Of a DNA stretch of 50,420 bases, positions 1 to 47,513 are shown one piece after another. The notes below the pieces were generated by a model that was not told where the DNA came from, ran no database searches, and saw only the letters and a program-made list of their open reading frames with translations. Numbering within the stretch: the stretch's first letter is position 1; every line of letters begins with the position of its first letter. A program made the position numbers and the translations under genes. This DNA comes from Patescibacteria group bacterium (GTDB lineage Bacteria > Patescibacteriota > Minisyncoccia > Phycocordibacterales > UBA6065), in contig JAGWHV010000001.1 in assembly GCA_028866595.1 (NCBI GenBank), forward strand, positions 1 to 50,420, read 5' to 3'.

Positions 1-2888
1 AGGAGCAGGAGATATTCCTCGCCGATTTCCCGCTCATGACCAATCACGGCACCTTCATCATAAACGGCATCGAACGCGTCATCGTACCCCAGCTGGCGCG
101 CTCGTTCGGCGTGTTCTTCACCTCTGACGAGCTCAAAGGCAAGACGGTCTTCGGCGCCAAGGTCATCCCTGCCCGCGGCGTCTGGCTCGAGATCGAGACC
201 GACACCGACGGCACGATATATGCTCGCATCGACAGGAAGCGCAAGTTCATGGTGACCGCTCTCCTCCGCGTCCTCGGCGCTGATACCGATGAAAAGATCC
301 TCGGCTACTTCAAAAACGACGAGGCCGCCAAAAAAGTCGTGGCCGCGTCTCTCGCCAAAGACACCGCCAAGACGATCTCTGACGCATATATAGAAATCCA
401 CAAACGCCTCCGCGATGGCGATCTCGCTACTGCCGATAACGCCAGGGATTTCATATCCAGCCTCTTCCATAAAGACCGGTACGACCTCTCGAACGTTGGC
501 CGTTTCCGCTTTAATAAGCGCTTTGGCAAGCCGATGACAGACAAAGAGCTCGAGAGGAAGACCATCGACGCCGACGATCTCGCCACGATCATAGGCAACA
601 TCATCCATCTCAACAATAAAGTCGACGCTGTCGAAGACGACATCGACCACCTTGGCAGCCGCCGCGTCCGGTACGTCGGCGAATTGATGCAGCAGAAGCT
701 CCGCGTCGGCCTTTCCCAGATGAAGCGCAACATCCAAGACAGGATGTCGACGATCGAGCCTGATACGACCCAGCCCTTGACGTTCGTGTCGCCGCGCCCT
801 CTCCAGGCTCGTCTCAAGGAATTCTTCACTACGAACCAGCTCTCGCAGTTCATGCAGCAGGAGAACATCCTTACCGAGCTCGAGCATCTCCGCACGCTCT
901 CGGCTCTCGGCCCGGGTGGCCTTACCCGCGAGCGCGCCGGCTTCGAAGTCCGCGACGTTCATCCGTCCCACTATGGCCGTCTCTGCCCGATCCACACCCC
1001 TGAAGGCCCGAACATCGGCCTCATTCTACGTCTGTCGACGTACGCCCGCCTCAACGATTTCGGCATGATCGAGACGCCGTATGCCAAGGTCAAGAACGGC
1101 AAGGTCACCAAGGAGATCATATATCTCAACGCTCTCGAGGAGGAAGGCTACCGCATCGCCCACGCCGCGACTTCGTATGACAAGTCGGGCGCCATCATCG
1201 AGGAATTCGCCGAGATCCGTCACAATGGCGGTCCTTCGATGGTTCGCCGCGAAGAAGTCGATTTCATAGACGTCTCGACGAATCAGGCGTTTTCGATCGC
1301 CACGAACATGATCCCATTCTTGAACCACGACGACGCCAACCGCGCGCTCATGGGTTCGAACATGCAGAAACAAGCCACACCGTGCATCATCCCTGAAGCG
1401 CCGCTCGTCGCGACCGGCATCGAGGCCAAAGCCGCCGAATACACCGGCCGTATCGTTCTCGCTCCCGAGGACGGCACGATCACAGGCGTCGACGCGAGCA
1501 AGGTCGTCTTCAAGAATCACAAAGGCAAAGAGACGACCTACAAGCTCGTCTCGTTCGAGAGGACGAACGGCTTTACCGCCTACCACCAGCGCCCTGTCGT
1601 CAATCTCGGTGACAAGGTCAAGAAAGGCCAGGTCCTTGTAGACGCTTCATCGTCCGACCAGGGCCAGATCGCTCTCGGTCAGAACATGCTCGTCGCTTTC
1701 ATGTCGTGGTCAGGCGCCAACTACGAAGACGCCATCATTCTGTCCGAGCGCGTCGTCAAGAATTCTAAATTCACCTCTATCCACATAGAGGAATTCGTGG
1801 TGAACGTCCGCGACACAAAGCTCGGCCCTGAAGTCACCACTCACGACATACCGAACGTCGGCGAAGGCAAGCTCAGGAACCTCGACGAAGACGGCATTAT
1901 CCGCATCGGCGCCGAGGTCCGTTCGGGCGACATCCTGGTCGGCAAGATTACGCCGAAGGGCGAGACCCAGCTCACGCCTGAAGAGCGCCTCCTCCGCTCG
2001 ATCTTCGGCGAGAAGGCCCGCGACGTCAAAGACACCTCTAAACGAATGGAAGGCGGCAAGCGCGGCCGCGTCATCTCCGTCAAAGTCTTCTCGCGCGAGA
2101 AAGGCGACAAGCTCGAGTCCGGCATCATCAAGCGCATCCACGTCGAAGTCGCTCAACTTCGTACCGTCTCCGTCGGCGACAAGCTCGCCGGCCGCCACGG
2201 CAACAAGGGCGTCATCTCTCGCATCCTTCCCGAGGAAGACATGCCGTACATGGCTGACGGAACGCCTATCGACGTCATCCTCACACCTCTCGGCGTGCCA
2301 TCCCGTATGAACCTCGGTCAGATTCTCGAACTCCACCTCGGCATGGCCGCGAATACTCTCAACTATCAGGCGATCGTGCCGCCATTCGCTGGTGCGACGG
2401 CGAACGAGATCAAGGCCGAGCTTAAAAAAGCGGGCTTGCCAGAGAACGGCAAGATCCCTCTCTACGACGGCCGCACCGGCGATAAATTCCAGCAGGACAT
2501 CTCTGTCGGCTACATGTACATCCTCAAACTGCATCACATGGTCGAAGACAAGATCCACATGCGCTCGATCGGTCCGTACTCTCTCATTACCCAACAGCCG
2601 CTCGGCGGCAAGGCTCAAGGCGGCGGCCAGCGCTTTGGCGAAATGGAAGTCTGGGCTCTCCTTGGTCACGGCGTCGCCCACACGCTCCGCGAGATCCTTA
2701 CCATCAAATCGGACGACATTCAGGGCCGCTCCGCCGCGTTCGATTCCATCGTCAAGGGCGAAAAGCTCCAACAGCCGAACATCCCGGCTTCGTTCCATGT
2801 GCTTCTGAATTCTCTCCGCGGCCTGGCCCTCGACGTCGAATTGCGCAAAGACGGCAAGGACATTAAAAGGACGAGCAAGACCGCTTAA
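1..2888 (+). CDS. rpoB: DNA-directed RNA polymerase subunit beta, 5' end truncated by window edge (codons in phase with position 3)
   Basis: The reading frame is open from position 3 (EQEIFLADFPLMTNHGTFIINGIERV...), so the gene starts upstream of the window. Classic beta-subunit motifs are present: GLTRERAGFEVRDVHPSHYGRLCPIHTPEGPNIGL, NMQKQA, GDKLAGRHGNKGVIS, GGQRFGEMEVWAL. Stop TAA at 2886-2888. rpoC follows 11 nt later. Confidence 0.97.
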   Translation, partial: EQEIFLADFPLMTNHGTFIINGIERVIVPQLARSFGVFFTSDELKGKTVFGAKVIPARGVWLEIETDTDGTIYARIDRKRKFMVTALLRVLGADTDEKILGYFKNDEAAKKVVAASLAKDTAKTISDAYIEIHKRLRDGDLATADNARDFISSLFHKDRYDLSNVGRFRFNKRFGKPMTDKELERKTIDADDLATIIGNIIHLNNKVDAVEDDIDHLGSRRVRYVGELMQQKLRVGLSQMKRNIQDRMSTIEPDTTQPLTFVSPRPLQARLKEFFTTNQLSQFMQQENILTELEHLRTLSALGPGGLTRERAGFEVRDVHPSHYGRLCPIHTPEGPNIGLILRLSTYARLNDFGMIETPYAKVKNGKVTKEIIYLNALEEEGYRIAHAATSYDKSGAIIEEFAEIRHNGGPSMVRREEVDFIDVSTNQAFSIATNMIPFLNHDDANRALMGSNMQKQATPCIIPEAPLVATGIEAKAAEYTGRIVLAPEDGTITGVDASKVVFKNHKGKETTYKLVSFERTNGFTAYHQRPVVNLGDKVKKGQVLVDASSSDQGQIALGQNMLVAFMSWSGANYEDAIILSERVVKNSKFTSIHIEEFVVNVRDTKLGPEVTTHDIPNVGEGKLRNLDEDGIIRIGAEVRSGDILVGKITPKGETQLTPEERLLRSIFGEKARDVKDTSKRMEGGKRGRVISVKVFSREKGDKLESGIIKRIHVEVAQLRTVSVGDKLAGRHGNKGVISRILPEEDMPYMADGTPIDVILTPLGVPSRMNLGQILELHLGMAANTLNYQAIVPPFAGATANEIKAELKKAGLPENGKIPLYDGRTGDKFQQDISVGYMYILKLHHMVEDKIHMRSIGPYSLITQQPLGGKAQGGGQRFGEMEVWALLGHGVAHTLREILTIKSDDIQGRSAAFDSIVKGEKLQQPNIPASFHVLLNSLRGLALDVELRKDGKDIKRTSKTA

Positions 2889-20809: not shown

Positions 20810-20818
20810 TGTTATAGT
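20810..20818 (+). promoter_or_regulatory. extended -10 box TGtTATAGT upstream of uvrC
   Basis: TG at 20810-20811 and TATAGT at 20813-20818. This argues against the GTG at 20817 as the start and for the ATG at 20856. Confidence 0.4.
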
Positions 20819-20855
20819 GCAAACCGCTCCATCGCATTTGACCGCATCCGAACGC

Positions 20856-22154
20856 ATGACCATAGAAGATTTCGAAAAACTGAATATCCCCGACGCGCCC
20901 GGCGTCTATTTCTGGAAAGAAGGCCGGACTATTCTTTATATCGGCAAAGCCACGTCGCTCTGCGATCGCGTCAGGTCGTATTTTTCGGCTGATCTCATAT
21001 CGACCCGCGGCCCGCGCATGGTCGACATGGTTTTTCGCGCTGATTCGATCGAATGGATGGAGACAGATTCTGTCCTCGAAGCGATGATCGCCGAGGCTAA
21101 CTTGATAAAAAAGCATTGGCCTGACTATAACGTCAAAGAAAAAGACGATAGGAGCTGGAACTATGTCATCATCACCCGCGGCGGGCGCCACGGTCGGCGC
21201 AGTGAACGCGGCCCAAGCGGCGAATTTCCGCGCGTCCTCACGATCCGCGGCCGGACGCTCGAAGTTGAGAAGCAAAAGAAGCTCCTCAAAGTCCGCCGGA
21301 CGTTCGGGCCGTTCACGAGTGGCTCGGCATTGCGCGAAGCTCTCAAAATAATCCGCCGGACATTCCCGTTCATCGACAGGCACTCATCGTCGAAATACAC
21401 GAGCACCTTTTACCGCCAGATTGGCCTCGCTCCCGACACCGCCACCGCCGAGGCGCGAGCCGCGTACGAGAAAAATATCGACCACATCATTCTTTTCTTT
21501 GAAGGAAAAAAGAAAAAGCTCATCCGCGAGCTCGATCGAGAGATGGACGCCTGCGCCAAAAAGCTCGAATTTGAAAAAGCCGCTCTGATCAAAGGCAAGA
21601 TCTTTGCCCTCGAGCATATCCAAGACGTCGCCCTTATCAAAGACGACGTCCAAGCATTCGATTGGCGGCCGGAGACGGCTGATCGCGAAGCGGAGGGTTT
21701 TCGCATCGAGGCGTATGACGTCGCTCACATGTCCGGCAAAGAAACGGTCGGCGTCATGACTGTCGTCATCGACGGTGAGCCGGATAAAAACGAATACCGC
21801 CGATTCAAGCTCGATTCGCGGACGGGCAATAATGACACCGCCAACCTCCGCGAGATCATCGAGAGGCGAGCGAAGCACCCCGAATGGCGCTCGCCGAACC
21901 TCATCGTTATCGACGGCGGCCAGAGCCAGCTCAATCTCGCGGAAAAAACATTCCGTGCTCTCGGCATCTCGGTGCCTCTTGTCTCTGTCATCAAAGACGA
22001 CAGGCACAAGCCTGCGGACATTCTCGGAGATCCGGCTCTCATATCGCGGCACAAGAAAGCAGTGCTCCTCGCCAATAGCGAAGCGCACAGATTCGCGATC
22101 TCCTATCACAGGAAGCTCCGCCGGATCAGGAATCCTCGCCGAGGCACATTCTAA
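20856..22154 (+). CDS. uvrC: excinuclease ABC subunit C, short form lacking the C-terminal (HhH)2 domain
   Basis: GIY-YIG motif PGVYFWKEGRTILYIGKATSLCDRVRSYF, UVR domain EMDACAKKLEFEKAALIKGKIFALEHI, and endonuclease domain RIEAYDVAHMSG...SEAHRFAISYHRKLRR. The protein ends about 10 aa after that. Confidence 0.9.
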   Translation: MTIEDFEKLNIPDAPGVYFWKEGRTILYIGKATSLCDRVRSYFSADLISTRGPRMVDMVFRADSIEWMETDSVLEAMIAEANLIKKHWPDYNVKEKDDRSWNYVIITRGGRHGRRSERGPSGEFPRVLTIRGRTLEVEKQKKLLKVRRTFGPFTSGSALREALKIIRRTFPFIDRHSSSKYTSTFYRQIGLAPDTATAEARAAYEKNIDHIILFFEGKKKKLIRELDREMDACAKKLEFEKAALIKGKIFALEHIQDVALIKDDVQAFDWRPETADREAEGFRIEAYDVAHMSGKETVGVMTVVIDGEPDKNEYRRFKLDSRTGNNDTANLREIIERRAKHPEWRSPNLIVIDGGQSQLNLAEKTFRALGISVPLVSVIKDDRHKPADILGDPALISRHKKAVLLANSEAHRFAISYHRKLRRIRNPRRGTF

Positions 22155-23336: not shown

Positions 23337-23338
23337 AG

Positions 23339-23411
23339 TGGACCGTACAGGATTCGAACCTGCGACCCCCTGCTTGCAAAGCAGGTGCTCTACCAACTGA
23401 GCTAACGGCCC
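23339..23411 (-). tRNA. tRNA-Ala (anticodon UGC), CCA not encoded
   Basis: Reverse complement: GGGCCGT TA GCTC AGTTGGTA GAGC A CCTGC TTTGCAA GCAGG GGGTC GCAGG TTCGAAT CCTGT ACGGTCC A. It is 73 nt, has the G3:U70 alanine identity pair, and the anticodon loop centre is TGC. Confidence 0.93.
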
Positions 23412-26631: not shown

Positions 26632-26702
26632 GGGCCTATAGTATATCGGTAATACGCATCCATGGCATGGATGAGTGTCGGGTTCGACTCCCGATAGGTC
26701 CA
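26632..26702 (+). tRNA. tRNA-Ala (anticodon GGC), CCA not encoded
   Basis: GGGCCTA TA GTAT ATCGGTA ATAC G CATCC ATGGCAT GGATG AGTG TCGGG TTCGACT CCCGA TAGGTCC A. It is 71 nt with a G3:U70 pair. Confidence 0.9.
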
Positions 26703-26714
26703 CAAGGAGGACTT

Positions 26715-26788
26715 GCACCCTTAGCTCAGTCGGCTAGAGCGTTCCCTTCACACGGGAGAGGCCACACGTTCGAATCGTGTAGGGTGCA
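26715..26788 (+). tRNA. tRNA-Val (anticodon CAC), CCA not encoded
   Basis: GCACCCT TA GCTC AGTCGGCTA GAGC G TTCCC TTCACAC GGGAG AGGCC ACACG TTCGAAT CGTGT AGGGTGC A. It is 74 nt. Confidence 0.9.
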
Positions 26789-26796
26789 CACGGGAA

Positions 26797-26830
26797 GAGG
26801 CCGCGCGGCGCTCTGCGCCGCCGCGGCCTC
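26797..26830. repeat. GC-rich palindromic hairpin, copy 1 (core CGCGGCGCTCTGCGCCGC)
   Basis: GAGGCCGCGCGGCGC-tct-GCGCCGCCGCGGCCTC forms a 15-bp stem with one bulge. The 18-nt core is identical to the one at 27781-27798. Confidence 0.8.
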
Positions 26831-26841
26831 GGTCCCGAGAC

Positions 26842-26912
26842 GGGCCTATAGTCTAGTGGTACGACGCGTCATTCGCATTGACGAGGCGGGGGTTCGATTC
26901 CCCCTAGGTCCA
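26842..26912 (+). tRNA. tRNA-Ala (anticodon CGC), CCA not encoded
   Basis: GGGCCTA TA GTCT AGTGGTA CGAC G CGTCA TTCGCAT TGACG AGGC GGGGG TTCGATT CCCCC TAGGTCC A. It is 71 nt with a G3:U70 pair and one D-stem mismatch. Confidence 0.88.
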
Positions 26913-26981
26913 CATCAAGGATTGTGCACATATAGCGGTTTACAGGTATAGATCGGCGTTCTATACTCGTCTTGGCCCCTG

Positions 26982-32342: not shown

Positions 32343-32918
32343 ATGGATCAGAACGGACAAAGCGCACGCCAGCCTCGTTTTCTCAAATGGTCGCTCGTAT
32401 TCGCGATTGCTCTCGTCGCGAACCTTTTCGTTAATTACGCTCTTTCGCTCGCGTACAAAGCGCCTGTCTGGAATGATTTCTGCCACGATCAGCAGATCGT
32501 GACGCCTCCGGCGACGGAAGCCGCCTGCGTCTCCGCAGGCGGCCAATGGACTGCCGTGGTCGCGCCGGCAGGGCAGGAGCCGCCGACTGTCAAAACCGCG
32601 AGCGGTTATTGCAATCCGAATTACACATGCCAACAAGCTCTCCAGAATGCCCAGGAGTCGTACGAGCGTAATGTCTTCATCATTCTCGTCATCGTCGGCG
32701 TCATCATGATCGCCCTTGGCTCGTTCGTGGGCGGCGGGGAAGTCGTCAAAACATCCCTTTCGTTCGCTGGCTCGCTCTCGCTCGTCGTCGCTTCTTTCCG
32801 GTACTGGTCGTCGGCTCAAGACTGGCTCAAGGTCGTCATCCTCGGCGTCGCTCTCGCCGCTCTCTTGTGGCTCGCCGTCAAAAAATTCGCCCGCACAGAT
32901 GAAAAAGTACGATCATAA
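32343..32918 (+). CDS. hypothetical membrane protein with Cys-containing extracytoplasmic loop (191 aa)
   Basis: TM segments WSLVFAIALVANLFVNYAL, VFIILVIVGVIMIALGSFVGG, and VVILGVALAALLWLAV. It overlaps the leuS start by 20 nt. Confidence 0.6.
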   Translation: MDQNGQSARQPRFLKWSLVFAIALVANLFVNYALSLAYKAPVWNDFCHDQQIVTPPATEAACVSAGGQWTAVVAPAGQEPPTVKTASGYCNPNYTCQQALQNAQESYERNVFIILVIVGVIMIALGSFVGGGEVVKTSLSFAGSLSLVVASFRYWSSAQDWLKVVILGVALAALLWLAVKKFARTDEKVRS

Positions 32919-35751
32919 GAAAATAGAAAAAAAATGGCAGTCGGAGTGGGCCAAAGCCAAGATCTATAACGCCAAGGAAGGCGCGTCGGCGAAAGGCATG
33001 AAGAAATTCTATCCTCTCGTCGAATTCCCGTTTCCCTCGGGCGCTGGCCTTCATACGGGTCATGTGAGGAGCTATACAGCTATGGACGTTGTCGCCAGGA
33101 AGCACCGCATGGAAGGCGAGAACGTCATGTATCCGATCGGCTGGGACGCGTTCGGCCTGCCGACGGAGAATTATGCGATCAAGACCGGCCGCCAGCCAGC
33201 GGCTGTCACAAAAGAAAACACAGACAATTTCCGCCGCCAGCTCAAATCGCTCGGCCTTTCTTTCGACTGGTTGCGCGAGGTGGATACGACCGATCCGAAA
33301 TATTACAAATGGACGCAGTGGATCTTTCTCAAAATGTTCGAGAAAGGCCTCGCCTATAAAGCCAAGACGGAGATCAATTGGTGTCCGAAGGACAAGATCG
33401 GCCTCGCCAACGAGGAAGTGGTGAACGGCCGTTGCGATCGGTGCGGCACGCTGGTCGAGAAGCGGGTCAAAGAGCAATGGATGCTCGCCATCACCAAATA
33501 TGCCGACCGTCTCTATGACGACCTTGATACAGTCGACTACCTGGAGCGTATCAAGATCCAACAGAGGAATTGGATCGGTCGGTCCGAGGGCGCGGAGCTC
33601 GGATTCGCCGTGCGCGTCGGCGGCAAGGCTCTCGCCGACAAGGTAAAAGTATTCACAACCCGGCCTGACACGCTTTTCGGCGTGACGTACGTTGTCGTCG
33701 CGCCGGAGCACCCGCTCGTCTCCACGCTAGAATACAAAAACAAAACCGAGGTCGCCGCATACGTCGCCGCCGCGCGCAAAGAGAGCGATATAGAGCGCAC
33801 CGATGCCAAAAAAGAGAAAACAGGCGTCAAGCTCGAAGGCGTCTCGGCTGTGAATCCGGCGAATGGCGAGGAGGTGCCCGTCTTCGTCGCTGATTATGTC
33901 CTAGGAGGCTATGGCACTGGCGCCGTCATGGCAGTACCTGCGCATGACGAGCGCGATTTCGCTTTTGCGAAGAAATACGACTTGCCCATTCGCCATGTCG
34001 TCGAGCCTTCGTTCGAGAAAAATGAAGGTAAGGACGCGACGAGAAAAGGCCAACCATTCGTCGAACGAAACGCGGTCATGTGCCTTATAAAACATTGGGA
34101 CAAAGACGAATTCCTGTGCTCAAAATGGAAATCGAATGATTGGCAGGGTTTCGTCACGGGCGGCATCGACGGAGCAGAAGACGAAGGCGCCACGGCCGTG
34201 CGCGAGGCAGCCGAAGAGACCGGGTATACGGGCACGAAATATGTGAGGACCGTCGGCACTGTCCATTCAAAGTTCTATCACGACGTAAAGCGCAAGAATA
34301 GATACGCTCACTTCAAAGTCGTATATCTCGAGCTCGCATCGGGAGCGCAGAAGCCTGTCGCAGAAGACGAGAAAAACCTCCATGACGTCGTCTGGGTGCC
34401 GCGTGACAGAGTGAGAGATTTCGTGAACAGACCCGATCTCAAGGCCGCATGGGATCTATTCGCGGACGGGTGCTATGTCGGAGAAGGCGTGCTCGTCGGC
34501 TCTGGAAAATTCAGCGGAATGGATGCCGACGGAGCGATGAAGCCGATCACTGAATTCGCCGGAGGGAAGTGGGTGACGACGTACAAGCTCCGCGACTGGG
34601 TGTTCTCGCGCCAGCGCTATTGGGGCGAGCCGATCCCTCTCATCCATTGCGAAAAATGCGGCTGGGTAGCCGTTCCGGAAAAAGACTTGCCCGTCAAATT
34701 GCCTGCCGTCAAAAAATACGAGCCGACGGATACAGGCGAGTCGCCGCTCTCGGCTATGACTAAATGGGTCAACGTCAAGTGCCCGAAATGCAAAAGCCCG
34801 GCGATCCGCGAGACGGATACCATGCCGCAGTGGGCTGGTTCATCTTGGTATTACCTTCGCTATGTCGATCCAAAAAACAGCAAGAAGCTCGCTGACCCTA
34901 AAAAGCTCGACTACTGGACGCCCGTCGATTGGTACAACGGCGGCATGGAGCACACGACGCTTCACTTGCTCTATTCGCGCTTTTGGCACAAATTCCTCTA
35001 CGACATCGGCGTCGTGCCGACTGCTGAGCCGTACAAGAAGCGCACCTCCCAAGGCATGATCCTCGCCGAAGGCGGAGAGAAAATGTCCAAATCGCGCGGC
35101 AATGTTGTCAATCCTGACGAGCTCGTGGAGACCTATGGCGCCGACACTCTCCGTCTCTATGAGATGTTCATGGGTCCTTTTGACCAAGCGATCGCCTGGG
35201 ATACGAAAAGCATGATCGGTCCGCGGCGGTTCATCGAGAGAGTCTTCGCATTCGGTCAGAGACCGACGAGAAAAGGAGCCACGCTCTCGAAAGAAACGGG
35301 CGCTCTTCTTCAAAAGACCATACAAAAAGTGACAGCGGATATCGAGAACATGAATTTCAATACGGCTATATCGTCTCTGATGATTCTCCTCAATGCTTTC
35401 GAAAAAGAAGATGCCGTGCCGCGCGCCGATCTCGAGTCATTCCTCAAACTCCTCGCGCCTCTCGCCCCGCATATGACGGAGGATGTGTGGCATGAGCTTG
35501 GCAATAAAAAATCCATCCACATCGCGCCGTGGCCCGTCGCCGACGAGACCAAGCTCGAGGACGAATCGGTCACTATCGTCGTCCAAGTCAACGGTAAAGT
35601 CCGAGCGAGCTTTATCGTGGCTAAAGGCACGGATAAAAACGTCCTCGAACGTACGGCACTCGGCCTCGCCGATGTGAAAAAATGGGTAGGGGAGGCGACG
35701 CCGAAGAAGGTGATCATCGTCCCCGGCAAGCTCGTGTCGATCGTCGTCTAG
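32899..35751 (+). CDS. leuS: leucine--tRNA ligase carrying an internal Nudix-domain insertion (950 aa)
   Basis: HIGH-type HTGHVRSYT; CP1 editing motifs TTRPDTLFGVTYVVVAPEHPLV and GTGAVMAVPAHDERD; YKLRDWVFSRQRYWGEPIP; KMSKS. The start is ATG 32899 (MKKYDHKKIEKKWQSEW). The ORF-track extension from 32716 overlaps the upstream gene out of frame. Confidence 0.95.
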   Translation: MKKYDHKKIEKKWQSEWAKAKIYNAKEGASAKGMKKFYPLVEFPFPSGAGLHTGHVRSYTAMDVVARKHRMEGENVMYPIGWDAFGLPTENYAIKTGRQPAAVTKENTDNFRRQLKSLGLSFDWLREVDTTDPKYYKWTQWIFLKMFEKGLAYKAKTEINWCPKDKIGLANEEVVNGRCDRCGTLVEKRVKEQWMLAITKYADRLYDDLDTVDYLERIKIQQRNWIGRSEGAELGFAVRVGGKALADKVKVFTTRPDTLFGVTYVVVAPEHPLVSTLEYKNKTEVAAYVAAARKESDIERTDAKKEKTGVKLEGVSAVNPANGEEVPVFVADYVLGGYGTGAVMAVPAHDERDFAFAKKYDLPIRHVVEPSFEKNEGKDATRKGQPFVERNAVMCLIKHWDKDEFLCSKWKSNDWQGFVTGGIDGAEDEGATAVREAAEETGYTGTKYVRTVGTVHSKFYHDVKRKNRYAHFKVVYLELASGAQKPVAEDEKNLHDVVWVPRDRVRDFVNRPDLKAAWDLFADGCYVGEGVLVGSGKFSGMDADGAMKPITEFAGGKWVTTYKLRDWVFSRQRYWGEPIPLIHCEKCGWVAVPEKDLPVKLPAVKKYEPTDTGESPLSAMTKWVNVKCPKCKSPAIRETDTMPQWAGSSWYYLRYVDPKNSKKLADPKKLDYWTPVDWYNGGMEHTTLHLLYSRFWHKFLYDIGVVPTAEPYKKRTSQGMILAEGGEKMSKSRGNVVNPDELVETYGADTLRLYEMFMGPFDQAIAWDTKSMIGPRRFIERVFAFGQRPTRKGATLSKETGALLQKTIQKVTADIENMNFNTAISSLMILLNAFEKEDAVPRADLESFLKLLAPLAPHMTEDVWHELGNKKSIHIAPWPVADETKLEDESVTIVVQVNGKVRASFIVAKGTDKNVLERTALGLADVKKWVGEATPKKVIIVPGKLVSIVV

Positions 35752-35810: not shown

Positions 35811-36845
35811 ATGACAACGACGCTTACGCTCAAGCCGAAACAGGTCGTCAAGGCGCTCCTCAAGAGCCTGCCTGACCGCGCCCAGGAAGTAGTCATCAAG
35901 CGCTACGGCCTCGGCAAAGATCCGAAGAAGATGACTCTCGAGGCGATAGGCAAGACCTACGGCATCACCCGCGAGCGCGTCCGCCAGATCGAGAACTACG
36001 CCATTCAGAACATCCAGCGCTCGAAAGAGTACGAAGCCCAGGCGGCTGCTTTCAAGGAGCTCGAGGATATGGTCAAGGAGATGGGCACCATTATCGCCGA
36101 GGAAGACCTCCTCGACGCTGTCTCGAAAGACGCCTCGACCCAGAATCATATCTATTTCTTGCTCGTCCTCGGCCGGGCTTTCAAATGGCAAAAGGAGGAC
36201 GACCATTTCAAGCACCGCTGGCATGTCGACGACGCGACCGCCAAGAAAGTCGAGGACGCTCTCAAGAAGCTCTACAAGAATCTCAAGGACGACGACATCA
36301 TCCCTGAATCGGAGATGATCGATACGTTCCTCAACCACATCGAGGGGCTTAACGATCAGTATCGAAACGACGAGATTCTCAAGCGCTGGCTCGCCATCTC
36401 GAAAAAAGTCGGCAAGAATCCTCTCGGCGAATGGGGTGTCGCCCAGTCTCCGAACATCCGCGCCAAAGGCGTCCGCGATTATGCTTATCTGGTGATCAGA
36501 AAGCACGGCTCGCCGATCCATTTCCGCGAAGTCGCCAAGCAGATCGAAAAAATGTTCGACAAAAAAGCCCACGAAGCGACCACTCACAACGAGCTCATCA
36601 AGGACCCCCGCTTCGTTCTCGTCGGCCGCGGCCTTTACGCGCTCTCCGAGTGGGGCTATATGTCCGGCGTCGTCAAAGACGTCATCAAGAAGATCCTCGA
36701 GAAGAGCGGCCCGCTCACCAGGAAGGAGATCATAGACAAAGTCCTCAAGGAGCGCTACGTCAAAGAGAACACTATCCTCGTCAATCTCCAGAATCCGAAA
36801 TATTTCAAGAAAGACAAAGAGAACAGGTACTCGCCGGCGGCATAG
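35811..36845 (+). CDS. sigma-70 region-4-like HTH plus HARE-HTH (RpoE-delta-like) domain protein
   Basis: The N-terminal VIKRYGLGKDPKKMTLEAIGKTYGITRERVRQIENYAI resembles sigma region 4.2. The C-terminal YAYLVIRKHGSPIHFREVAKQIE...RFVLVGRGLYALSEWGY resembles the HARE-HTH fold. Confidence 0.7.
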   Translation: MTTTLTLKPKQVVKALLKSLPDRAQEVVIKRYGLGKDPKKMTLEAIGKTYGITRERVRQIENYAIQNIQRSKEYEAQAAAFKELEDMVKEMGTIIAEEDLLDAVSKDASTQNHIYFLLVLGRAFKWQKEDDHFKHRWHVDDATAKKVEDALKKLYKNLKDDDIIPESEMIDTFLNHIEGLNDQYRNDEILKRWLAISKKVGKNPLGEWGVAQSPNIRAKGVRDYAYLVIRKHGSPIHFREVAKQIEKMFDKKAHEATTHNELIKDPRFVLVGRGLYALSEWGYMSGVVKDVIKKILEKSGPLTRKEIIDKVLKERYVKENTILVNLQNPKYFKKDKENRYSPAA

Positions 36846-36902: not shown

Positions 36903-38138
36903 GTGAATATTTTTTCCGATCTCGCGAGCTTCGCCATCAATATCGCTATCCCGCAGACTGCCCGCTGGCTCATATTCTTTGCTGTCGTCTGGATACCGAT
37001 CGTCATATTCGAGTATGCCTGGGGCGTCTGGGTCCGCTATGTGCGGACTGCGTGGATAGGGAAGCAGGAAAAGATCCTCCTCGAGATCAAATTGCCGCAA
37101 GAGACGATCAAGTCGCCGCTCGCTATGGAGCTCGTTCTCACCGGCCTCTATCAAACGGGCGGCGAAGGCACGCCTCTCGACCGTTATTGGGAAGGCAAAG
37201 TCCGCCCATGGTTCTCTCTCGAGCTCGCGTCGATCGATGGCGAGATCCATTTCTACATCTGGACGTTCAAGAGCCAGCGGGCGATCGTCGAGTCGAATAT
37301 ATACGCGCAATATCCGGGCGTCGAGATCCACGAAGTGCCCGACTATACCGAGGCGGTCTTCTTTGACCCGGAGAAATACGAGCTCGCCGGCTGCCGATTC
37401 GAAGCGACCGGCCCTGATCCTTTGCCGATAAAAACGTACGTCGACTATGGCCTCGACAAAGATCCAAAAGAAGAATACAAAGTCGATCCAATGGCGCCTC
37501 TGATCGAATTCATGGGCTCGCTCAAGAAAGGCCACCAAGCCTGGGTTCAGATCATTGTCCGCGCCCACACCCAGGAGAAGACGCCTCTCAACAATAAATA
37601 TCCCGACAAATGGAAAGAAGAGGCTAAAGAACTCATCCAGAAAGTCATCGACGAAGCCGCTGTCGAGGACGAAGAGGGCAACAAGGTGCCGAATCTAGCC
37701 AAGCTCACCAAGGGCGCCCAGGAAAAAATCGCCGCCATCGAGCGCTCCGTCTCCAAGCTCGCGTTCGACGCCGGCATCAGGATCGTCTACATCGCTCCGA
37801 AAGATATCTTCGATAAAGGCAATGGCGGCGGTCTGACAGGCTCGTTCAAGCAATTCAACGCGCCCCACATGAACGGCTTCAAGCCAGAGGAAGGCATGTC
37901 ATTCGACTATAAATGGCAGGACTGGAAAGGCCACAAGCTTCTGGGGCGCAAGATCGAGCATTTCCGGGCATATTGCGAGCGTGGCTATTTCCACTATCCG
38001 TTCATGCGCAAGTGGACGGTGCTCAATACCGAAGAGCTCGCGACTCTTTATCATTTCCCAGGCAGCGCCGTAAAGACGCCGACCCTCAAGCGTATCCCAT
38101 CGAAGAGCGCGGACGCTCCTTCGAACCTGCCTGTCTAG
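36903..38138 (+). CDS. conserved-looking hypothetical membrane-anchored protein (411 aa)
   Basis: N-terminal TM segment WLIFFAVVWIPIVIF followed by LLEIKLPQETIKSPLAMELVL...FSLELASIDGEIHFYIWT. From memory this pattern resembles N-terminal modules of proteins next to conjugation/T4SS-type ATPases in CPR genomes. That comparison is unverified. Confidence 0.55.
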   Translation: MNIFSDLASFAINIAIPQTARWLIFFAVVWIPIVIFEYAWGVWVRYVRTAWIGKQEKILLEIKLPQETIKSPLAMELVLTGLYQTGGEGTPLDRYWEGKVRPWFSLELASIDGEIHFYIWTFKSQRAIVESNIYAQYPGVEIHEVPDYTEAVFFDPEKYELAGCRFEATGPDPLPIKTYVDYGLDKDPKEEYKVDPMAPLIEFMGSLKKGHQAWVQIIVRAHTQEKTPLNNKYPDKWKEEAKELIQKVIDEAAVEDEEGNKVPNLAKLTKGAQEKIAAIERSVSKLAFDAGIRIVYIAPKDIFDKGNGGGLTGSFKQFNAPHMNGFKPEEGMSFDYKWQDWKGHKLLGRKIEHFRAYCERGYFHYPFMRKWTVLNTEELATLYHFPGSAVKTPTLKRIPSKSADAPSNLPV

Positions 38139-40973: not shown

Positions 40974-41810
40974 ATGTCCCCACTTTCGATCGTCAAATCG
41001 ACAGGCGAGCGCGAGCGGTTCGACCCAGCCAAGCTCGTCGAGTCGCTCCGCAAATCAGGCGCCACTCAAGATCAGGCCGAAAAAGTCCTCCGCCATATTG
41101 AGGGCGAGCTCGTTGAAGGCATGACGACGAATGAAATCTACCGCCACGCCTTCGAGATCCTCCGGAAAGTCGCCCATCCGGCCGCCGTCGCTCGATATTC
41201 GATGAAGCGGGCAATAACCGAGCTCGGCCCGACGGGCTTTCCTTTCGAAAAATTCATAGCCGAGATTTTCAAGTCGGAAGGATACGAGGCTCTGACTGAC
41301 CAGATCGTCCAGGGTAGCTGCGTCGAGCACGAGATAGACGTCGTCGCTTGGAAAGGCGACGAGCTCGTCATGGTCGAGGCGAAATTTCACAACGAATACG
41401 GCATCAAATCCGACCTCAAGGTCGCTCTGTATATAAAAGCCCGCTGGGACGACCTCAAAGAGAATGTGTATGCGTACGGCGGCAAAAAGCGCAAAGTCAC
41501 CTCGTTCCAGCTTTTTACGAATACGAAATTCACCGATGCCGCGATCAGGTACGCCGAATGCAAAGGGCTAACGCTCATCGGCTGGAATTATCCGCGCCGC
41601 GGCAACCTCGAGGATCTCGTCAGCGAGGCGGGCCTCCATCCCGTCACGGCGATGACGACGCTTGGTCAAGCGGAGAAGAAATCTCTCCTCGACGGCGGTA
41701 TCGTCCTTTGTAAGCAGGTGGCGGCTCAAGGCCAAAATCTGTTAAGCTACGGCATCTCCAAGAGCAAGGTCGCATCCGTGCTCGAAGAGGCCCAACACAT
41801 CTGTGGCTAA
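40974..41810 (+). CDS. ATP-cone domain fused to a PD-(D/E)xK (Mrr-like) restriction-endonuclease-fold domain
   Basis: The N-terminal IVKSTGERERFDPAKLVESLRKSGATQDQAEKVLRHIEGELVEGMTTNEIYRHAFEIL is ATP-cone-like. The core has HEIDVVAW (Asp) and VEAKF (E-x-K). Confidence 0.7.
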   Translation: MSPLSIVKSTGERERFDPAKLVESLRKSGATQDQAEKVLRHIEGELVEGMTTNEIYRHAFEILRKVAHPAAVARYSMKRAITELGPTGFPFEKFIAEIFKSEGYEALTDQIVQGSCVEHEIDVVAWKGDELVMVEAKFHNEYGIKSDLKVALYIKARWDDLKENVYAYGGKKRKVTSFQLFTNTKFTDAAIRYAECKGLTLIGWNYPRRGNLEDLVSEAGLHPVTAMTTLGQAEKKSLLDGGIVLCKQVAAQGQNLLSYGISKSKVASVLEEAQHICG

Positions 41811-45737: not shown

Positions 45738-47513
45738 ATGACATCCGCTGAAGTCCGCCGTCGGTTCCTTGCTTTTTTTGCCGCCCGCGGCCACGCTATC
45801 ATCCCGTCCGCGTCTCTCGTGCCGGAGAACGATCCCTCGGTCCTTTTCAATACCGCCGGTATGCAGCCTCTCGTGCCGTATCTTCTCGGCGAAAAGCATC
45901 CGAACGGAACGCGCCTGGCCGATTTCCAGAAATGCGTGCGGACGAACGACATCGACGAGGTCGGTGACAATACGCACCTCACTTTTTTCGAGATGATGGG
46001 CAATTGGTCTCTCGGCGACTATTTCAAGAAAGAAGCGATCGAATGGAGCTACGATCTTTTGACGAATAAAGAGTACGGCTTCGGCCTTGACCCACGGCGC
46101 CTCTACGTCTCGTGCTTCGAAGGCAATGATGACGCGCCGCGCGATGAAGAGTCGGCCGCGATCTGGCGCGACATTTTTGCTAAAAACGACGTCGCAGGTG
46201 AGCGCATATATTTCATGCCCGCGTCCGAGAACTGGTGGCAGCCGGGTCCGAATGGCCCGTGCGGCCCCGACTCCGAGATGCGCTACGACCTCACGGGCGC
46301 GCTCGCATCCGGCATGACAAAGGAAGAATACATCAAAGCCGATGCCGACCAGCACATCGTCGAGATCTGGAATGACGTTTTCATGGAATTCGTCAAAAAA
46401 GACAACAAGGTCGTCGGCCGCCTTGAAAAGAAGAACGTCGATACCGGCGCCGGTTTCGAGCGCATGTGCACGGTCATCCAGGGCAAGTCGAACGTCTTCG
46501 AGGCGGATCTTTTCGCCCCGATCATGGATCTCATACGTTCACGGTCGAGCGCCTATGATCTCCGTTCGGCTCGCATCGTCGCCGACCATATGCGGACGAC
46601 GACGTTCCTCGTCGCCGACGGTGTCTTGCCTTCGAACAAAGACCAAGGCTACGTTCTCCGCCGTCTCATGCGCCGGGCGATATTCAAACTAAGCTCGCTC
46701 GGTCTCGACAAGAGCGCCGGCGAAGAGATCATCGGCATGTATGTCGACATGTATAGTGTCGCCTACCCGGACTTGGACAAGACGGCTATCCGTGCCGTCT
46801 ATCGCGACGAGGCAGAAAAATTCGAAAAGACTCTCGTCGACGGCAAGAAAGAGCTCGAAAAAGGCACCGATCCATTCATCCTCTGGACGACGTACGGATT
46901 TCCGATAGAGCTCACATCCGAATTGCTCAAAGAGAAAGGGCGAGCCCTCGATCGCTCTGCTTTCGACAAAAAAATGAAGGAGCATCAGGATGTCTCTCGT
47001 GCCGGCGCCGAGCAGAAATTTAAAGGCGGCCTTGGCGACGCTAACGACCCGATGGTCGTCCGCTATCACACGGCGACCCACCTTTTGCATAAAGCCCTCC
47101 ACGAAGTCCTCGGCGAGCACGTCTCGCAGAAAGGCTCAAATATCACGCCAGAGAGGCTTCGGTTCGACTTTGCCCATAGCGCGAAAATGACGGATGATGA
47201 AGAAAAACGCGTAGAAGATATCGTCAATGACCATATCTCTGCGGCTCTACCGGTGAACCGCGTCGAATTGCCGAAAGATGAAGCCCTCAAGACGGGCGCC
47301 TACCATTTCTTTGGCGACAAATACGGCGACGTCGTGTCTGTCTACTACATCGGTGATTCTCTCGAGGGCGCTTATTCCAAAGAATTCTGCGGCGGGCCGC
47401 ACGTCTCTAACACTCGCGATCTCGCCGGCCCGGAAGGGAAGTGGCGATTCAAGATCCAAAAAGAGGAAGCGGTCTCTGCCGGCGTCCGCCGCATCAAGGC
47501 GGTCTTGTCCTAG
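45738..47513 (+). CDS. alaS: alanine--tRNA ligase, compact form (591 aa) lacking beta-barrel linker and C-Ala domains
   Basis: N-terminus VRRRFLAFFAARGHAIIPSASLVPENDPSVLFNTAGMQPLVPYLLG. Editing-domain motifs HTATHLLH and CGGPHV. The protein ends at VSAGVRRIKAVLS. Confidence 0.93.
   Translation: MTSAEVRRRFLAFFAARGHAIIPSASLVPENDPSVLFNTAGMQPLVPYLLGEKHPNGTRLADFQKCVRTNDIDEVGDNTHLTFFEMMGNWSLGDYFKKEAIEWSYDLLTNKEYGFGLDPRRLYVSCFEGNDDAPRDEESAAIWRDIFAKNDVAGERIYFMPASENWWQPGPNGPCGPDSEMRYDLTGALASGMTKEEYIKADADQHIVEIWNDVFMEFVKKDNKVVGRLEKKNVDTGAGFERMCTVIQGKSNVFEADLFAPIMDLIRSRSSAYDLRSARIVADHMRTTTFLVADGVLPSNKDQGYVLRRLMRRAIFKLSSLGLDKSAGEEIIGMYVDMYSVAYPDLDKTAIRAVYRDEAEKFEKTLVDGKKELEKGTDPFILWTTYGFPIELTSELLKEKGRALDRSAFDKKMKEHQDVSRAGAEQKFKGGLGDANDPMVVRYHTATHLLHKALHEVLGEHVSQKGSNITPERLRFDFAHSAKMTDDEEKRVEDIVNDHISAALPVNRVELPKDEALKTGAYHFFGDKYGDVVSVYYIGDSLEGAYSKEFCGGPHVSNTRDLAGPEGKWRFKIQKEEAVSAGVRRIKAVLS

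Follow-up and report, generated by a model that had tools for sequence, protein, structure and literature searches.

What is a whole nucleotide hydrolase doing inside a leucyl-tRNA synthetase? The question is raised by leuS in a 50,420-nucleotide stretch of contig JAGWHV010000001.1 (GenBank assembly GCA_028866595.1, a Patescibacteria group bacterium), referred to below as the window. The product of this gene is a bacterial-type leucyl-tRNA synthetase (LeuRS) in which a Nudix module of about 150 residues takes the place of a short surface loop of the CP1 editing domain. This observation raises several further questions. Is the host still a proper LeuRS? Is the module complete, and is it kept by selection? 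Does it belong to the chemistry of the synthetase, or is it a guest? And on what would it act? The reading favoured here, to which we give a probability of roughly 0.55, is that the module would be an autonomous Nudix pyrophosphohydrolase tethered to LeuRS, with nucleoside-polyphosphate by-products as its likeliest substrates.

The host presents few puzzles. The gene lies in an open reading frame spanning 32716-35751 on the plus strand, and the NCBIfam equivalog model for bacterial LeuRS (TIGR00396, leuS_bact) matches the whole protein with 987.5 bits against a cut-off of 548.4, the match being split in two stretches that break at model position 371. Alignment with Thermus thermophilus LeuRS gives E=4e-213, and Pfam recognises the class I core, the LeuRS editing domain, NUDIX and the anticodon-binding domain in the product; the editing profile tRNA-synt_1_2 covers residues 223-378 with its positions 1-150 of 185 (E=3e-62). 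HTGH, TTRPDT, AHDERD and KMSKS are all present, which bears out the initial annotation in describing the editing and synthetic motifs as intact. A full-length AlphaFold2 (AF2) model built from 83 sequences reaches pLDDT 90.3 and pTM 0.81 and superposes on the E. coli and T. thermophilus enzymes with target-normalised TM-scores of 0.79-0.84 (0.84 for E. coli 4aq7); the LeuRS fold is thus predicted to be intact despite the insert. A separate peculiarity of this LeuRS concerns the leucine-specific domain, which lies beside KMSKS in most bacterial LeuRSs and is not universal. It is absent here, the alignment going from T. thermophilus residue 584 straight to 637 at query residue 728 (KMSKS, window ~35080). 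The domain is an accessory module, one that Mycoplasma mobile LeuRS also does without (PMC3643597).

Where does the insert sit, and is it a complete domain? Query residues 1-371 align with T. thermophilus 1-365 and residues 525-728 with 376-584, leaving 153 residues in place of a CP1 loop of about ten (T. thermophilus 366-375). They come after AHDERD...LPIRHVVEPS and before the CP1 return strand GEGVLVGSGKFSGM (GEGVLVGSG). The initial annotation had located the insert at 34009-34461, and this holds to within a few residues; the T. thermophilus alignment shifts the limits to those given in Table 1. The Nudix box, GGIDGAEDEGATAVREAAEETGY, is an exact match exactly where that annotation had placed it, and it is the sole one across the six frames of the window. 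Pfam NUDIX (PF00293) matches residues 407-505 in the context of the protein (E=9e-13, 48.8 bits against a gathering cut-off of 21.1) and the excised block at E=5.9e-14 (52.7 bits), so that both profile searches suggested at the outset, this one and the one with LeuRS models, end above their cut-offs. The module also has a signature of its own, KHW..KYL..WK...W before the box and FYxxxKxxNR after it. The structure prediction likewise suggested at the outset was made with residues 361-531 and 48 homologous inserts. It returned a mean pLDDT of 92.2, a pTM of 0.86 and the strand-helix-strand order of the Nudix fold, and in the full-length model the insert keeps its secondary structure unchanged (pLDDT 92-97). 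Foldseek found 509 PDB matches to the insert model at E<=1e-3, and all 50 of those listed belong to the Nudix family. The best are an Enterococcus faecalis MutT/nudix protein (2azw) and the Aquifex aeolicus diadenosine tetraphosphate (Ap4A) hydrolase 3i7u (target TM 0.79, root-mean-square deviation 2.5 Å); other top matches are Mycobacterium smegmatis MutT1, the M. tuberculosis Nudix diadenosine polyphosphatase Rv2985, AvrM14, CT771, RppH and DIPPs. A sequence profile built from the inserts matches AvrM14 (3e-8) and lupin Ap4A hydrolase (3.8e-8), and the identity of the insert to every one of the solved structures is only 12-23%. Pfam, AF2 and Foldseek therefore agree with the claim that a complete Nudix domain stands between these two parts of CP1, and the models predict that it folds independently.

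Table 1. Coordinates of leuS and of the features of its product in the window (Tt, T. thermophilus LeuRS).
Feature	Nucleotides	Residues	Strand	Remarks
leuS, bacterial-type leucyl-tRNA synthetase	32899..35751		+	950 aa plus stop codon; ATG at 32899
HIGH-like signature HTGH	33052..33063	52-55	+	H52, G54 and H55 invariant in 83 aligned LeuRSs
CP1 editing domain before the insert	33565..34011	223-371	+	Pfam tRNA-synt_1_2
TTRPDT	33655-33672	253-258	+	T253, T254, R255, D257 and T258 nearly invariant in the 83 LeuRSs
AHDERD	33940-33957	348-353	+	H349, D350, R352 and D353 invariant in the 83 LeuRSs
Inserted Nudix hydrolase module	34012..34470	372-524	+	Pfam PF00293; equivalent to a whole free-standing protein of ~160 aa
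Nudix box GGIDGAEDEGATAVREAAEETGY	34159..34227	421-443	+	exact regular-expression match to GX5EX7REUXEEXGU
Post-box subfamily signature F459-Y460-x3-K464-x2-N467-R468	34273..34302	459-468	+	from conservation in 119 homologues
Post-insert part of LeuRS: CP1 return strand, remainder of catalytic core, anticodon-binding and C-terminal domains	34471..35748	525-950	+	aligned with Tt 376-876
CP1 return strand GEGVLVGSGKFSGM	34480-34521		+	
ZN2 CxxC knuckles (two)	34648-34659 and 34780-34791		+	
KMSKS	35080-35094	728-732	+	
Pfam Anticodon_1		804-915	+	

Is the fusion old, and has the module been kept as an enzyme? The survey of orthologues proposed by the initial annotation found a module at the canonical CP1 site in 119 of the 120 closest LeuRS clusters (58-72% identical). 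The sources named for these clusters are Candidatus Paceibacterota, Taylorbacteria, Nomurabacteria and Parcubacteria/Patescibacteria group, and the taxonomic breadth of the insert is given here as these source names have it; in species-representative genomes, a scan with the single protein gave two closest loci, both from Candidatus Paceibacterota. Over the 119 inserts G421, E436, E440, G442 and N467 are invariant, and K464 (118), R390 (117), E439 (116) and R468 (114) nearly so. Elsewhere the module varies more: E427 is Glu in 95 and Gln in 20, R435 is Arg in 100, F459 is found in 98, and position 460 is Tyr in 76 (64%) and Phe in 37 (31%). The insert evolves about twice as fast as its host (mean pairwise identity 0.39 vs 0.63-0.74), and the three metal-binding glutamates are kept nonetheless, a pattern that selection on a working catalytic site would produce. 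Conservation of E436, E439 and E440 thus lends indirect support to metal-dependent catalysis, and the fusion is long-resident, as had been proposed, and under selection. In composition the insert broadly resembles the rest of the gene. The claim that GC content and codon usage follow the rest of the gene stands for GC (0.534 vs 0.554) and for synonymous codons (correlation r=0.79); GC at third codon positions (GC3), with 0.621 against 0.694 +/- 0.037, falls at the lower end of what the gene shows. The correlation between insert and host is near zero (Pearson 0.12, adjusted Rand index 0.004) within a narrow span of host identities, 0.665 +/- 0.044.

Is the module bound to LeuRS, or does it also live elsewhere? 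A phmmer search with residues 375-520 returned merely 287 clusters at E<=1e-3 among 1.84 billion cluster representatives, which makes this a narrow Nudix subfamily. The best 150 of the 287 comprise 97 LeuRSs or LeuRS fragments, 37 free-standing proteins (a class defined as up to 210 aa and including some short fragments), eight proteins with a reduced CP1-like scaffold plus Nudix (mini-CP1), two of prolyl-tRNA synthetase (ProRS) type and six with other N-termini. Two free-standing members, P0271 and P0136 (89% identical to each other), are 40-41% identical to the insert over its full length, N-terminal linker included, and their genes stop 2-4 nt before the start codon of a leuS that has no insert (811 aa in locus L002). 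The order in L002 is YchF, Nudix, leuS, sigma70_r4/HARE-HTH, DUF8128, YceG and MnmA, with flanks that match the window; between ychF and leuS of the window, where L002 has the free-standing gene, there is no Nudix remnant. Other free-standing members (P0272, P0275 and P0276) have neighbours other than leuS, and the gene-order link is therefore limited to the single lineage of P0136 and P0271. The same module is also present in five clusters of archaeal-type ProRS (P0215 and P0277-P0280; loci L012, 2906-4837, and L013, 5593-7524), whose nearest named relatives are Nanoarchaeota and Woesearchaeota. There it lies between the anticodon-binding and C-terminal domains; its box is canonical in P0279 and P0280 and has a one-residue deletion in P0215, and these modules group with free-standing-like proteins, one of them annotated Nanoarchaeota. 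Repeated fusion, together with operon-like adjacency in one lineage, indicates that the subfamily is tied to aminoacyl-tRNA synthetases.

The mini-CP1 proteins are an observation in their own right. Mostly of ~280 aa (P0191, P0209, P0218, P0226, P0234, P0245, P0262 and P0236; L017, 6001-6864), they carry RPELIYGA in place of TTRPDTLFG, followed by PAHxxxD and a return strand GEGxxxNS, and they hold the Nudix module in the corresponding loop. The gene of P0218, which is complete, comes from a bacterium of 31% GC; on its contig of 300 kb it has a CYTH gene on one side and an IlvE-like aminotransferase on the other. The mini-CP1 proteins may be free-standing relatives of class Ia editing domains.

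How closely is the module bound to the workings of its host? P0059, which in its host regions is the LeuRS most like that of the window (74% identical), is cleanly free of the insert, LPVRIVIE running directly into GESLVESGAFSGM, at a syntenic locus with no adjoining Nudix gene; the insert is therefore dispensable for leucylation. Related LeuRSs carry copies of the module at further loops, namely (in window numbering) after ~210-213, immediately ahead of CP1, after ~248, immediately ahead of the TTRPDT strand, and after the zinc knuckles C584xxC587 and C628xxC631. In all, the module is seen at four or five different LeuRS loops, with 77 of the 99 mapped copies at the canonical CP1 site, and some LeuRSs hold two or three Nudix copies. 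The second copies at the loops labelled sites A and B form conserved clades of their own, 65-90% identical among themselves vs 32-51% identical to the canonical-site copy of the same protein; there are thus two old paralogous module types, which are not recent duplicates. A module that takes many positions, is found free as well as in two unrelated synthetases, and can be dropped by its host has probably no mechanistic share in leucylation or editing.

Nor is Nudix the only guest. In 33 of the 120 closest LeuRS clusters (e.g. P0007, P0018, P0020, P0052, P0104 and P0105) one to three further domains are grafted in frame at four other surface loops: an extra Nudix at site A (10 clusters) or site B (11 clusters), an alpha/beta serine hydrolase (PF06821, GHSLG) at site B (four clusters) or after C587 (two), a HAD phosphatase (PF13419, DFDGV) after C631 (nine) and a Ham1/ITPase domain (PF01725) in three. 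The catalytic motifs DFDGV, GHSLG and TRNxAK of these grafts look intact in the sequences. Two further LeuRS inserts, one of 116 aa after residue 587 in P0057 and one of 121 aa after residue 537 in P0061, have no match in Pfam. A variant of the Nudix module itself deserves mention here. Twenty of the 119 canonical-site modules (~17%; e.g. P0028, P0038, P0040, P0048 and P0063) have a 'Q-type' box, GGxExGQTxExAAx[A/M/T/H]ExxEETG, in which E427 is replaced by Gln and R435 is lost, the three metal-binding glutamates being retained; the same box is found in the second copies inspected at sites A and B (P0014 and P0022). It looks like a distinct paralogous type, not like decay.

What, then, would the module hydrolyse? 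All function-specific NCBIfam Nudix models score far under their cut-offs for the insert, and curated homology consequently assigns it no substrate. Among the RppH/NudH-type equivalogs, the best RppH models give 13-20 bits against cut-offs of 116-259; the MutT1 model NF052459 gives 20-24 bits against 475, leaving the likeness to MutT1 purely structural. The CoA subfamily of Nudix enzymes is defined by a motif upstream of the box. Residues 385-470 contain neither this motif nor the downstream Pro of ADPRases nor the NADH motif SQPWPFPxS, the latter two as defined in PMC5389931. A more positive hint comes from the 'X-loop', in which a Tyr ~17 residues after the box correlates with ApnA (diadenosine polyphosphate) hydrolases (PMC5389931); Y460 stands 17 residues past Y443, the last residue of the box. 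Synthetases, for their part, form dinucleoside polyphosphates (ApnN) from aminoacyl-AMP and nucleoside triphosphates (PMC7705103). The structural neighbours, Tyr460 and the synthetase link are leads toward dinucleoside polyphosphates or related polyphosphate nucleotides, not proof. The clearance of Ap4A-type compounds suggested by the initial annotation is thus plausible and gains fresh support from the Ap4A-hydrolase neighbours, from Tyr460 and from the fusions and gene order; catalytic activity, and above all the substrate, are what we infer.

These lines of evidence can be joined in one mechanism. The LeuRS of this ultra-small bacterium of the Paceibacterota (candidate phyla radiation, CPR) is an otherwise complete enzyme with a whole small Nudix pyrophosphohydrolase set in frame into a CP1 surface loop. 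Keeping its catalytic metal-binding glutamates, this domain most likely acts as an enzyme on its own, tethered to LeuRS and co-expressed with it, and is probably not a step of leucylation or proofreading. Its substrates would most likely be Ap4A, Ap3A, other ApnN and related nucleotides made around adenylate-forming synthetases, and not Leu-AMP. Several points weigh against this assignment. Nudix substrates are not reliably readable from fold or motifs, all the more at 12-23% identity and with no function-specific model reached. The aromatic residue at +17 is Tyr in only 64% of the homologues and Phe in 31%, and in the ~17% with the variant box (E427Q plus loss of R435) catalytic activity is uncertain. 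LeuRS is not known to be among the strong producers of Ap4A. Finally, the Ham1, HAD and alpha/beta-hydrolase grafts of sister LeuRSs fit a general role of 'hydrolase carrier' at least as well.

Could the insert be something else altogether? The most trivial explanation, an artefact or a recently arrived mobile element, has a probability close to nil, the low-edge GC3 being all that speaks for it. An assembly chimera is ruled out, since 119 of 120 related clusters, which come from independent assemblies, have the same insert in frame. An intein was considered and rejected: Pfam finds no Hint/intein match, the boundaries (...VVEPS/FEK...CYV/GEG..., i.e. S371/F372 and V527/G528) are without splice residues and the distribution is not sporadic. 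Any artefact or recent insertion would also sit poorly with the codon-usage correlation of 0.79. The carrier role is a more serious matter, and a generic house-cleaning fusion is the main rival to a tethered ApnN hydrolase. The Nudix domain would then sanitise oxidised or aberrant (deoxy)nucleoside triphosphates in the manner of MutT1, and LeuRS, constitutively expressed and tolerant of insertions, would be just a handy carrier for a streamlined genome; the module would have no chemical tie to what synthetases produce. Both Nudix and Ham1 count as classic house-cleaning families of nucleoside triphosphate pyrophosphatases. ITPase is described as a house-cleaning enzyme (PMC7865087), and 33 of the 120 LeuRS clusters bear Ham1/ITPase, HAD, serine hydrolase or extra Nudix domains at four other loops; MutT1 structures are among the best fold matches, and the variety of insertion sites counts against a constant spatial relation to the active sites of LeuRS. 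If LeuRS were just one convenient vehicle, however, why are the fused members in the best 150 clusters, with few exceptions, LeuRS, CP1-like fragments or ProRS, and not many essential hosts? The second, independent fusion is again to a synthetase, the free-standing member is translationally adjacent to leuS, and the MutT1 model stays at its 20-24 bits. On balance the house-cleaning explanation seems unlikely, albeit one to be kept in sight.

Other proposals tie the module more closely to the chemistry or the enemies of LeuRS. The grafted hydrolases could be built-in antidotes that destroy toxins mimicking aminoacyl-adenylates or nucleotides, in the way of agrocin 84 or microcin C, much as other synthetases have detoxifying domains attached to them. 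Close relatives differ in whether they have the module, its types are shuffled and change faster than the host does, NCBIfam has an entry for IleRS bearing a GNAT acetyltransferase graft (NF040702), and LeuRS is a known target of the toxic moiety of agrocin 84 (title of PDB entry 3zgz). Yet the argument is purely by analogy, no toxin or immunity genes were seen beside leuS in the window or the related loci, and a canonical-site Nudix in 119 of 120 clusters has the look of housekeeping and not of an arms race, all of which makes an antidote improbable. Still less credit is due to extra proofreading, in which Nudix and CP1 together would hydrolyse mis-activated aminoacyl-adenylates or tRNA-linked species. 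CP1 is indeed the commonest site (77 of 99 mapped copies), and the stand-alone proteins of ~280 aa retain a CP1-like scaffold, albeit a reduced one, that holds Nudix in the corresponding loop. The editing residues of CP1 are fully conserved, however, which leaves the normal route in place, and not all related modules stand in CP1: some are found at the ZN2 knuckles, others in ProRS, a class II enzyme. Nudix enzymes cleave a diphosphate bond, and an aminoacyl-AMP, being an acyl-phosphate, has none. The added pre-transfer editing route that the initial annotation had considered is hard to maintain on this ground, as it is with four or five loops in use, with the ProRS copies and with the clean loss in P0059, the closest LeuRS, which does without the insert. 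Equally slight is the chance that the domain is a non-catalytic nucleotide-binding sensor or regulatory domain coupling LeuRS to a nucleotide signal. Non-enzymatic Nudix domains are known (PMC5389931), and GQT for GE together with loss of the Arg of 'RE' is seen both in the subclade of 20 among the 119 and in the inspected second copies of sites A and B; the box of the window's LeuRS, however, is canonical, and E436, E439 and E440 stay all but invariant, the variant type included.

An autonomous hydrolase tethered to LeuRS consequently remains the preferred reading. A broader version of it can be put forward tentatively, and we hold it to be doubtful rather than probable: the LeuRS of Paceibacterota may be a modular platform on which the synthetase-associated Nudix family (two types, at most three copies) and other hydrolases form an anchored hub acting on adenylate-derived compounds, be these ApnN alarmones and caps or adenylate-mimicking toxins. 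Such a hub, if true, would be a new functional coupling of tRNA charging to the control of nucleotide by-products.

The surroundings of leuS form a housekeeping stretch with rpoB, rpoC, dnaG, rpoD, tgt, uvrABC, ddl, ychF, mnmA, pepF and alaS. Directly after leuS comes a 344-aa protein with sigma-70 region 4 and HARE-HTH (35811-36845), as it does in L002 and L016, that is, in every related locus examined. It is followed by a 411-aa protein without a Pfam match (36903-38138), encoded where L002 and L016 have their DUF8128 genes; in both the window and L002 this place comes immediately behind the sigma70_r4/HARE-HTH gene. Further on, 40974-41810 encodes a 278-aa fusion of an ATP-cone with an Mrr-type restriction endonuclease catalytic domain, and the same fusion is found in the syntenic L016. 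The alanyl-tRNA synthetase (45738-47513) is just 591 aa long and stops at the tRNA_SAD editing-domain motif, its C-Ala part appearing to be missing. Upstream of leuS are a tRNA-Ala(TGC) on the minus strand (23338-23411) and a tight plus-strand cluster of tRNA-Ala(GGC), tRNA-Val(CAC) and tRNA-Ala(CGC) at 26632-26913. A UvrC-like open reading frame of 445 aa (20817-22154) has an RNase H-like endonuclease domain and a UVR domain; at the threshold used, a search of it gave no GIY-YIG domain at the N-terminus, and the true start may be further upstream.

Why does this architecture matter? Literature searches on LeuRS or synthetases with Nudix and on CPR LeuRS yielded no description of it. The novelty claimed by the initial annotation thus holds as far as papers go; public protein databases contain many such proteins, with their Pfam domains already assigned. 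The grafts explain why pipelines give many such LeuRSs the name 'class I tRNA ligase family protein'. The chief producers of Ap4A-type dinucleotides in cells are the synthetases, and a fused LeuRS-Nudix offers a direct handle on whether cells must destroy these compounds at source. Up to three or four small-molecule hydrolases on one essential enzyme in minimal genomes are an unusual accretion of domains in a core translation protein, and the grafted LeuRSs are natural experiments on which loops tolerate the insertion of a whole domain. Specialists may be surprised by a Nudix family dedicated to synthetases in CPR and in ProRS genes of DPANN-like archaea, and by LeuRS as a scaffold for several hydrolases.

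How does the system compare with those already known? The LeuRSs of T. thermophilus (1h3n/2bte) and E. coli (4aq7) have the same class Ia layout of HIGH, KMSKS, ZN1, CP1, ZN2, anticodon-binding and C-terminal parts; compared with the former, the LeuRS of the window has a 153-aa Nudix for a loop of about ten residues and lacks the leucine-specific domain (roughly T. thermophilus 585-636). With the Nudix ApnN hydrolases and their relatives (3i7u, lupin 1f3y, Rv2985 9cxx, MutT1, CT771, RppH and DIPP) the insert shares the fold, the box, the +17 aromatic and surroundings rich in basic residues, whereas it is 12-23% identical to them, has its own signature and is embedded in or linked to synthetases. 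An extra catalytic domain on a synthetase is likewise seen in the IleRS-GNAT proteins (NF040702) and in the YbaK-like INS domain of ProRS; here, in contrast, the graft is a Nudix inside CP1, one among interchangeable grafts (one to three Nudix, Ham1, HAD, alpha/beta hydrolase) at five loops. The LeuRS of Mycoplasma mobile has no CP1. In this enzyme, which has a GKDG tetrapeptide for the leucine-specific domain, and in the split LeuRS of Aquifex, peripheral modules are lost, split or exchanged and leucylation is kept (PDB 3ziu; PMC3643597). Set against such losses and splits, the LeuRS of the window is a gain, that of an unrelated enzyme.

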